In this document: positions 30,525 through 31,139 of the stretch, piece by piece
Layout of the letters: every line of letters starts with the position of its first letter
Numbering within the stretch: the first letter of the stretch is position 1
DNA from: Elusimicrobiota bacterium
GTDB lineage: Bacteria; Elusimicrobiota; Elusimicrobia; UBA1565; JACRDR01
NCBI GenBank assembly: GCA_016194745.1
Contig: JACQBA010000013.1
Coordinates: 320,822-384,821 of the forward strand
DNA length: 64,000 bases
Direction of reading: 5' to 3'
Translations under genes and position numbers: made by a program
The notes under the pieces: model-generated
What the model was told of the DNA's origin: nothing
Seen by the model: the letters and a program-made list of their open reading frames with translations, nothing else
Database searches by the model: none

Positions 30525-31139
30525 ATGTATAAAAGGACTAATTGGGTCGCTGCGTTCGCAATCATCGCGGCTCTGTCGGGCGTTTCACAGGCGCAGTCGT
30601 TCGAGTCGGCGGTCGAAAAGGTGTTCGCCAAGGACGGCTCTATCCGCGTCCAGACGTTGCTTCTCCAGAACAACATCCGTGAGCACTCTACGGAAATGCA
30701 GGCGGCGGAGCAGGAAGCCGAGCTGCTCGAGATCCGGGCGGGCCGGGGCGGCCGCATCGGCGGCGGCCATCGGCGCCCGGGCGGGCACCATCGCATTCCC
30801 GGCGGACGCCATCGGATTCCCGGCGGCCGGCACGGCAACTGGGGCCGCTGGAACCACGGCGGCTGGGGACACCACCACTCCCGCGGTCGCTGGGCCTGGG
30901 GCCCGCGCGGCTGGCGCTGGTGGGGCTGGGTCGCGTTCGCCGGCGTTGGCGGCTACGCGGCGTGCCACCAGTATTACCTGAACCTCCGCTCGCAGTGCTA
31001 CTCTGCCTGCGACGCCGAGACGGCCGGCTGCAGCAGCGCCTGCGGCGGCAATCCGGAGTGCCAGGCCCAATGCAACGCGGAGAACGCGGGCTGCAACGCG
31101 AGCTGCGATTACGAGTACGCCAGGTTCCGCCGCTGCTAG
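30525..31139 (+). CDS. Secreted Gly/His/Arg/Trp-rich protein with Cys-rich C-terminal module
   Basis: Signal peptide MYKRTNWVAAFAIIAALSGVSQAQS. The low-complexity core is GGHRRPGGHHRIPGGRHRIPGGRHGNWGRWNHGGWGHHHSRGRWAWGPRGWRWWGW. The C-terminus has 8 Cys in a regular Cx3C-x5/6 pattern. Confidence 0.55.
   Translation: MYKRTNWVAAFAIIAALSGVSQAQSFESAVEKVFAKDGSIRVQTLLLQNNIREHSTEMQAAEQEAELLEIRAGRGGRIGGGHRRPGGHHRIPGGRHRIPGGRHGNWGRWNHGGWGHHHSRGRWAWGPRGWRWWGWVAFAGVGGYAACHQYYLNLRSQCYSACDAETAGCSSACGGNPECQAQCNAENAGCNASCDYEYARFRRC

Follow-up and report, generated by a model that had tools for sequence, protein, structure and literature searches.

Plant α-hairpinins, vicilin-buried peptides, scorpion cysteine-stabilized α/α (CS-α/α) toxins and the nemertean neurotoxin B-IV are cystine-ladder helix-loop-helix peptides, in which two antiparallel helices are held together by nested disulfides formed from paired CX3C motifs. 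They are free peptides of 23–55 amino acids with basic hairpins, and the disulfides of helix-loop-helix peptides are always ladder-like, with 0, 2 or 4 bridges having been seen (bioRxiv 10.1101/2020.05.26.118075). Here, we describe a gene from an uncultured Elusimicrobiota bacterium whose product ends in a ten-cysteine domain that appears to belong to this class by architecture, although not by detectable homology. The gene lies in a stretch of 64,000 nucleotides (contig JACQBA010000013.1, positions 320,822 to 384,821 of the forward strand; the whole of this stretch is referred to below as the window) and occupies positions 30525–31139 of its plus strand, running from the ATG at 30525 to the TAG at 31137–31139 and encoding 204 amino acids. 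These are exactly the coordinates that had been given for it in an earlier note on this DNA.

A described peptide with a very similar framework is the Cerebratulus neurotoxin B-IV (PDB code 1VIB), a solved disulfide-linked helical hairpin. Its framework, C-x3-C-x6-C-x2-C...C-x3-C-x6-C-x3-C, is almost superimposable on the segment from C158 to C194 of the window protein, and it is the top match in the PDB, albeit with an E value (0.31) that is not significant. The vicilin-buried peptides have an aromatic/Leu pair at the open end of the hairpin, and so does the protein described here. The window protein differs from all of these peptides in being bacterial and Sec-exported and in having, as we infer below, five rungs, which would be new among the described helix-loop-helix ladder peptides. 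Furthermore, the hairpin is not free but is the C-terminal domain of a modular protein (170–380 amino acids across the family), and it is acidic in most members, in contrast to the basic ladder peptides. Mitochondrial Tim9/Tim10 and the twin-CX9C CHCH proteins are similar to the proposed ladder in that they are helical hairpins with nested disulfides that form after import into an oxidizing, periplasm-derived compartment. Tim10 is the second-best PDB match (E = 1.9, not significant) and Pfam gave no zf-Tim10_DDP or CHCH match. The small Tim and CHCH proteins have two disulfides, compared with a probable five here, and there is no sign of a hexameric chaperone assembly in the present case.

Two further systems share some features with this protein. 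The wheat puroindolines are secreted, have a Trp-rich domain with a Trp/Arg cluster of the lipid-binding type (WRWWKWWK, compared with GWRWWGW here) and have ten cysteines that form five disulfides. They belong to the four-helix Tryp_alpha_amyl/nsLTP superfamily, however, with CC and CXC motifs and disulfides that are not nested; the window protein has neither a CC nor a CXC motif and the Pfam scan gave no match to PF00234, and the likeness is compositional only. TonB and TolA, which are envelope proteins, have an extended Pro/Gly-rich repeat spacer of variable length between an N-terminal element and a C-terminal binding domain. Where they have an N-terminal membrane anchor, the window protein has a signal peptide that can be cleaved; a TonB_C or TolA domain is absent, and neither ExbBD nor TolQR is encoded nearby.

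The ten-cysteine C-terminal domain

The C-terminal domain comprises residues 143–204 (30951–31136, plus strand), as delimited by the AlphaFold2 (AF2) model and the cysteine pattern. AF2 places helices at residues 143–172 and 177–201, with the hairpin turn predicted at residues 173–176. The predicted local distance difference test (pLDDT) score of the helices is >90 in the full-length run and ∼85 in a run on the C-terminal part (predicted template modelling score of 0.66), and the monomer is modelled as a two-helix hairpin. The ten cysteines are residues 147, 158, 162, 169, 173, 179, 183, 190, 194 and 204, giving spacings of 11, 4, 7 and 4, then 6, then 4, 7, 4 and 10. The earlier note had described this periodic spacing correctly but had counted eight cysteines. 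Each helix follows an 11-residue repeat in which the cysteines take the a and e positions (147, 158 and 169; 162 and 173; 179 and 190; 183 and 194), and the CX3C motifs occur in pairs, C158x3C162 with C190x3C194 and C169x3C173 with C179x3C183, to which C147 and C204 add a clamp. The arrangement is a mirror image about residue 176, the place of the predicted turn: the residue numbers of the pairs 173/179, 169/183, 162/190 and 158/194 each sum to 352 and those of 147/204 sum to 351.

The loss of cysteines within the family follows the same symmetry. We surveyed 39 unique aligned sequences (here and below, P and L numbers are our own labels for proteins and loci), 26 of which retain all ten cysteines. 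C162 and C190 are both absent from ten of the 39, which represent three lineages or more (the WPPVG clade, P0020/L009 and L005_4248); P0011 lacks C169 and C183, and P0006 and P0012 lack C173 and C179. The loss of a single cysteine from any mirror pair was not found in any of the 39 sequences, and the cysteine count is always even. The probability that at least five independent two-cysteine losses would all fall in mirror pairs by chance is about (1/9)^5, or 2e-5. Given the AF2 hairpin, the mirror symmetry and the confinement of losses to mirror pairs, the simplest reading is that the domain would contain five nested disulfides, C147–C204, C158–C194, C162–C190, C169–C183 and C173–C179. The same three observations support the disulfide ladder that had been suggested for this tail in the earlier note, and the cysteines are presumably oxidized rather than metal-bound. 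The hairpin gains further support from the two best PDB matches, B-IV and Tim10, which, though not significant, are both solved helical hairpins with disulfide cross-links, and from the general rule of ladder connectivity among helix-loop-helix peptides. The surface of the hairpin is polar, and acidic in most members, and it has no second hydrophobic seam of the kind needed to assemble a four-helix bundle.

A subfamily with eight cysteines, which has Ala or Val in place of C162 and C190, carries an additional conserved C-terminal tail, CG(F/Y)PxxWPPVGVVIRIP, which is unlike a PEP-CTERM or LPXTG signal or the β-signal of outer membrane proteins. This subfamily contains P0007, P0016, P0019 and P0021 and the products of L002 4224–5168, L012 2545–3213 and L022 5051–5788.

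Family and distribution

Exhaustive scanning with HMMER across 1.84 billion representatives uncovered the relatives of the protein, returning 21 proteins besides the query with E values from 2e-28 to 1e-4. Of these, 20 are true relatives; the remaining one, P0018 (581 amino acids with GGNQTIPGG repeats), was excluded as a low-complexity false positive. Scanning one genome per GTDB species with a pattern and tblastn gave four loci, all four of which are in metagenome-assembled genomes (MAGs) of Elusimicrobia/Elusimicrobiota, and a metagenome scan gave 16 further loci. With tandem paralogues included, the total is ∼40 unique members. All of the taxonomically labelled members are from Elusimicrobia and the members are unnamed or annotated as 'hypothetical protein' in their source records; the window protein itself has an identical NCBI entry, HY078_12000, which comes from an Elusimicrobia MAG.

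Searching Pfam and NCBIfam with the protein, with 21 aligned members and with the isolated modules gave only sub-threshold low-complexity matches (to the GRP, Extensin and YjdP repeats). The family profile had no significant match among PDB sequences, and a literature search with motif strings returned nothing relevant. Judged by these searches, this is a previously unannotated family, which among labelled records occurs only in Elusimicrobia. The homologues that the earlier note had suggested looking for thus exist. The outcome that the note had set as refuting its idea, homology to a known family such as the HypB- or UreE-like metallochaperone tails, was not obtained in Pfam or NCBIfam, and the same is true of SlyD. 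The resemblance to bacteriocin or adhesin modules that it had proposed was likewise not substantiated, with no homology in Pfam, NCBIfam or the PDB and no bacteriocin partner genes.

The type of search mattered. A word-indexed search with the whole protein returned the query only, and with the family profile it returned five proteins; every full-length relative was missed, even though the seed alignment included their exact subsequences. The family came to light only in the exhaustive HMMER scan, and to call this protein an orphan from the indexed search alone would have been wrong.

In several genomes (L002, L005, L010/L012 and L022), paralogues that differ in subtype lie in tandem, two or three together. 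These lie at 5051–5788, 6001–6768 and 6957–7760 in L022, at 4224–5168 and 5368–6372 in L002, at 4329–5132 and 5329–6405 in L005 and at 2545–3213 and 4569–5312 in L012. The paralogues a and b of L022 are 75% identical over the N-terminal 75 amino acids and 40% identical in the C-terminal domain, a difference that suggests gene conversion or module shuffling. The ratio of nonsynonymous to synonymous substitution rates (dN/dS) is 0.2–0.45 for orthologue pairs and reaches 0.75 when the pairs are more distant, which indicates a family that is under purifying selection yet evolving fairly fast.

Modular architecture

The architecture and the conserved columns were read from three alignments (A1, A2 and A4), which give the order Sec signal peptide, helical N-domain, Gly/Pro-rich linker, Trp motif and ten-Cys domain. 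The Trp-rich motif, WGRWNHGGWGHHHSRGRWAWGPRGWRWWGW, spans residues 106–135 (30840–30929, plus strand) and is defined by invariant or near-invariant Trp, Gly and His columns. W114, W132 and W135 are invariant, conservation is 90% or higher at W106, H111, G113, G115, W123 and G134, and the family consensus is DWGRWxGHPGWGHHxxRWxWDxxGRPxWWGW. This region had been described in the earlier note as part of a His/Trp/Arg/Gly low-complexity stretch. Residues 72–133 are indeed rich in these amino acids (20 Gly, 13 Arg, nine His and eight Trp out of 62), but the alignments divide the stretch into a hypervariable Gly/Pro spacer and the conserved Trp motif. What looks like low complexity here is, as far as the aligned sequences indicate, the most conserved part of the protein apart from the cysteines. 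The motif of the window protein has five Arg residues but lacks Asp and Glu, and the pI of the low-complexity region of this protein is 12; in most members the motif is near neutral, with 2–4 Asp/Glu residues compared with 2–4 Arg residues. Repeated HGGGW, as in the prion-type octarepeat PHGGGWGQ, was not found: the window protein has a single HGGW, and the family has GHPGWG, with a Pro after the His, once per protein. A small Trp β-hairpin at residues 123–126 and 129–132 is a tentative feature of the model of the C-terminal part only, where it has a pLDDT of ∼55.

The linker that precedes the motif (residues 72–105; 30738–30839, plus strand) is hypervariable, with Gly, Arg, His and Pro in the window protein and a pLDDT of <50 in the AF2 model. 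Across the family the linkers are 33–140 amino acids in length and are dominated by Gly and Pro, with His contents of 2–30% and Arg contents of 0–32%, and some members have Asp/Arg-rich linkers. The linker of the window protein is among the shortest in the family and is unusually Arg-rich. It contains a 21-nucleotide tandem duplication at 30780–30826 (plus strand; 2.2 copies with 88% matches according to Tandem Repeats Finder) that encodes HRIPGGR twice, the two 21-nucleotide units having mismatches at two of their 21 positions. The near-perfect tandem repeats that had been reported for this gene are therefore real, although small in extent.

Variation in repeat number, which had been proposed as a check, is indeed found between near-identical orthologues: insertions or deletions of whole repeat units (six, nine and 46 residues) separate orthologues that are otherwise 82–99% identical. 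A PGPRPE unit is the difference between the linkers of L010 and L012, a nine-residue PGPRPGP block is the difference in the second paralogue pair and a 46-residue (GNPGR)n block is the difference between L003 and L013, the proteins of which are otherwise ∼82% identical. The linkers encoded at L003 680–1450 and L013 4422–5330 also have short collagen-like G-X-Y runs (PGQPGRPGQPGRPGQPGR) beside (GNPGR)n. As the linker is rich in Gly and Pro, is unconstrained in length and composition and gains or loses repeats between near-identical orthologues, it seems to behave as a length-variable spacer and not as a conserved His-rich site. A His-rich, metal-binding character, as had been suspected from the window protein, is not a property of the family, given the wide range of His contents among its linkers.

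The signal peptide is of the Sec type and comprises residues 1–23 (30525–30593, plus strand). It consists of MYKRTN, a 14-residue hydrophobic core and SQA|Q, with cleavage predicted at SQA|QS, in agreement with the clean signal peptide of the earlier note. All full-length homologues have equivalent N-termini, with the cleavage pattern A-x-A|Q(S/T)FEQ. The signal peptide has no lipobox, and a lipoprotein was dropped as an interpretation, as was a PEP-CTERM-type sorting signal, on the basis of sequence features or missing partner genes. A transmembrane segment at residues 134–147 was rejected as this stretch is charged in most homologues. Following the signal peptide, residues 24–71 (30594–30737, plus strand) form an acidic helical N-domain according to alignment A1 and AF2, which predicts helices at residues 25–36 and 38–74 with pLDDT values of 66–81. 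The N-domain is ∼45–50 amino acids in length across the family and has the conserved motif FEQSV..(L/V)SKD....Q...LK.SV..N.

Gene structure and genomic neighbourhood

The window has a GC content of 66% and long spurious open reading frames (ORFs) are abundant in all frames, and the reading frame was tested for this reason. The frame of 30525–31139 has GC fractions of 0.63, 0.58 and 0.85 at the three codon positions, compared with third-position values (GC3) of 0.86–0.90 for the flanking genes. The overlapping alternative ORFs (30373–30981 on the plus strand and 30585–31070 and 30488–30838 on the minus strand) do not have the GC3 signature of the neighbours. The ORF at 30525–31139 is a genuine gene. 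The start is assigned to the ATG at 30525 and not to the GTG at 30504 because of the position of a Shine–Dalgarno sequence, GGAGG, at 30515–30519 (plus strand), with a five-nucleotide spacer to this ATG; the resulting N-terminus, MYKRTNW, fits the family consensus MxxRKxx.

A perfect −10 box, TATAAT, is found at 30462–30467 (plus strand), 57 nucleotides upstream of the ATG. A generic promoter scan did not call it owing to the poor −35 region. A TATAAT-like box located 35–100 nucleotides (mostly 49–66) 5′ of the ATG is nevertheless present in 11 of 20 family genes but in only one of 33 controls (Fisher p = 2e-5), which upholds the −10 box (tagtataat) that had been picked out earlier. Downstream of the gene there is an intrinsic terminator at 31160–31195 (plus strand) with a 16-base-pair GC stem followed by U-rich UUCUCAUUU; its fold z-score is −4.7, and none of 200 shuffled sequences folds equally well. 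A pattern scan also detects it on the minus strand and, as a run of A residues precedes the stem, it looks bidirectional. With its own −10 box, a strong Shine–Dalgarno sequence and a strong terminator, the gene looks monocistronic and self-contained.

A small hairpin in the 5′ untranslated region, TGGCC-cctcgt-GGCCA, is found at 30495–30510 (plus strand), just 5′ of the ribosome-binding site, with weak significance. GC hairpins before the Shine–Dalgarno sequence are not significantly enriched in the family, being present in 12 of 20 family genes compared with 11 of 33 controls (p = 0.09). They also precede the family genes of L002, L004, L005, L021, L022 and L026 with differing stem sequences; the stem pairs include GCCCGG/CCGGGC, ATCCGG/CCGGAT, TCGGC/GCCGA and TGGCC/GGCCA. 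A scan against Rfam found no known RNA elements, its sub-threshold matches being to the terminator hairpin, and no tRNAs were found near the gene.

The gene is divergent from a gene for a PilZ protein (30013–30393, minus strand; Pfam E = 7.8e-11), which is 131 base pairs away. The divergent PilZ gene had been noticed before and is real; a linkage between the two genes is not supported, as no homologue has a PilZ gene alongside. No neighbour is common to the window and the other loci (more than 20), and PilZ adjoins a family gene only here. The other close neighbours, none of which has a Pfam match, encode a 235-residue protein with a signal peptide (31250–31957, plus strand), a 405-residue protein with a signal peptide (28497–29714, minus strand) and a 75-residue protein with an N-terminal hydrophobic helix (29779–30006, plus strand); from their sequences, these immediate neighbours appear to be likewise uncharacterized exported or membrane proteins. 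More widely, the window encodes DUF2207, LemA, a ZIP transporter, a redoxin, a LuxC/LuxE-like acyl reductase/synthetase, a GNAT acetyltransferase and a trehalase, and no functional theme emerges from the surrounding genes.

Some further features of the neighbourhoods were observed. In the window, the minus-strand genes at 31967–35658 and 35665–36849 encode a 977-residue fusion of a LuxC-type acyl-CoA reductase with an AMP-binding (acyl-adenylate) domain and then a LuxE-like acyl-protein synthetase and a GNAT acetyltransferase, which may form a fatty-aldehyde or lipid-modification cluster. An EamA-like gene is found between paralogues in L010, L012 and L021 and is clade-specific. In the syntenic loci L004 (1767–2306) and L020 (366–905), the gene directly 3′ of the family gene encodes a redoxin of the thioredoxin fold, with CNHCP as its CxxC motif, and L022 has DsbD_N and redoxin genes ∼5 kb downstream; redoxin proximity is not conserved elsewhere.

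Discussion

We are confident of the structural and family description given above. With regard to function, our reading is tentative: the explanation that we favour over the others, as possible and short of probable, is that this Sec-exported, modular protein is a non-enzyme that acts as an extracytoplasmic binding or anchoring protein. In this proposal, the signal peptide would be cleaved once the protein has been exported, after which the C-terminal 60 residues would fold as an antiparallel two-helix hairpin with cysteines at positions a and e of the 11-residue repeat. Oxidation to five nested inter-helix disulfides would then give a rigid, polar, protease-resistant and heat-resistant rod of ∼4.5 nm in length. 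At the open end of the rod the Trp/Gly/His/Arg motif would come together with Y150, Y151, Y196, Y198 and F201 to form an aromatic cluster, which is the proposed binding surface for either the membrane interface or a glycan or other envelope polymer. The Gly/Pro-rich linker would be an extended, flexible element that keeps the modules apart and evolves through the gain and loss of repeats, and the conserved amphipathic N-terminal helices would bind a partner or self-associate. A location in the periplasm or envelope would suit this proposal, and the Trp motif would be its ligand-binding element; both of these points we infer.

Several observations count against this proposal. The Trp motif, which is its putative binding element, is modelled by AF2 with low confidence (pLDDT of 38–59). 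Neither Pfam nor sequence features revealed anything by which the protein could be placed, be it a lipobox, a transmembrane segment or an envelope-binding domain of a known kind. Fold searches return generic helical hairpins only and are uninformative on function. Layers of metal-bound cysteines would equally be expected to be lost in mirror pairs. Finally, a family that is patchy, multi-copy and fast-evolving (dN/dS of 0.2–0.75) fits better with an accessory or arms-race protein than with a core envelope component.

An explanation that we consider unlikely but worth weighing is that the protein is the precursor of a peptide secreted for defence or attack. A toxin or antimicrobial module with extracellular stability would then be formed by the cystine-ladder hairpin, perhaps in combination with the cationic Trp/Arg stretch, analogous to the plant α-hairpinins, vicilin-buried peptides, scorpion κ-KTx toxins and nemertean neurotoxin B-IV, and the N-domain and linker would be a pro-region. 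Outside mitochondria, every helical hairpin with a disulfide ladder that has been characterized is a toxin or a defence peptide, and B-IV is the closest PDB sequence match, with a common cysteine framework, although this match is not significant. The five Arg residues and absence of acidic residues in the Trp motif of the window protein and the pI of 12 of its low-complexity region would suit a cationic peptide, as the two or three divergent tandem paralogues, the lineage restriction and the relatively high dN/dS would suit a weapon. The charge argument does not carry over to most members, which combine a near-neutral Trp motif with an acidic hairpin. Moreover, no conserved immunity, maturation or export gene accompanies any member, a Sec signal alone would leave the product in the periplasm of a diderm, and a conserved N-domain with linkers of 33–140 amino acids would be unusual for a bacteriocin precursor. 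A RiPP (ribosomally synthesized and post-translationally modified peptide) or SCIFF-like (six cysteines in forty-five residues) precursor was also considered and rejected on sequence features or missing partner genes. A broader proposal, that the five-disulfide hairpin and the new Trp motif define the first bacterial cystine-ladder α-hairpin family, as an exported, Elusimicrobia-specific effector (a toxin or antimicrobial or a surface-binding or mineral-binding protein) with a spacer tuned by repeat slippage, we hold to be similarly doubtful.

Binding or buffering of metals in the periplasm, with the His/Gly/Trp stretches as ligands for Cu(II), Ni or Zn or the Cys-lined helices as Cu(I) thiolates, is less likely still. 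The window protein taken alone would suggest it, with His at nine of 62 residues and the sequence HGGWGHHH, and in the family H111 is nearly invariant and many linkers have GGGHP-type repeats. However, the His content of the linkers varies from 2 to 30%, and those of P0007, P0009, L010 and L013 have almost none. In addition, the consensus H-P-G-W has a Pro after the His, which prevents the octarepeat-type coordination by backbone amides that underlies Cu–HGGGW chemistry. For the cysteines, the precedent is the copper storage proteins (Csp), in which bundles of helices lined with cysteines bind Cu(I) (PMC9484137), and mirror-pair losses are compatible with the removal of a metal-binding layer. 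The isolated hairpin has no Csp/DUF326 match in Pfam (E up to 10), though, the search of the PDB gave no Csp match (E up to 10), and the always even number of cysteines and the lack of a second hydrophobic seam for a four-helix bundle also speak against this possibility. No conserved metal transporter or regulator is nearby. The protein is, furthermore, exported unfolded via Sec, whereas the export of Csp1 uses Tat. Two other explanations are effectively excluded. An adhesin or matrix protein controlled by cyclic di-GMP through the divergent PilZ gene is very improbable: it draws on the common intergenic region and the proximity of PilZ on the opposite strand, yet in more than 20 other loci neither PilZ nor any other common neighbour lies beside the homologues, and the protein has no adhesin domain. 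The chance that we have described a spurious ORF is negligible. The GC-rich DNA with its many long spurious ORFs in all frames and the partly low-complexity translation would allow for one, but only this frame has the right GC3 signature, the Shine–Dalgarno sequence, −10 box and terminator are present, and ∼40 homologues share the Trp and Cys columns with dN/dS below 1.

Implications

If the five-disulfide hairpin is confirmed, it would extend into bacteria a fold class known from toxins of eukaryotes, defence peptides of plants and proteins of the mitochondrial intermembrane space, with a rung count above that of the described members. The domain would then be a compact, hyperstable scaffold with possible use in protein engineering, and were the protein an exported effector, it would represent a new bacterial scaffold of extreme stability that has converged on the toxin folds of animals and plants. 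The stakes are moderate, as the family is small and has no tie to a long-standing open question. The case also illustrates how apparent low complexity can conceal a conserved motif. For the Elusimicrobia, a phylum with few cultured members and little functional knowledge, the result is a new protein family with a clear, testable architecture.

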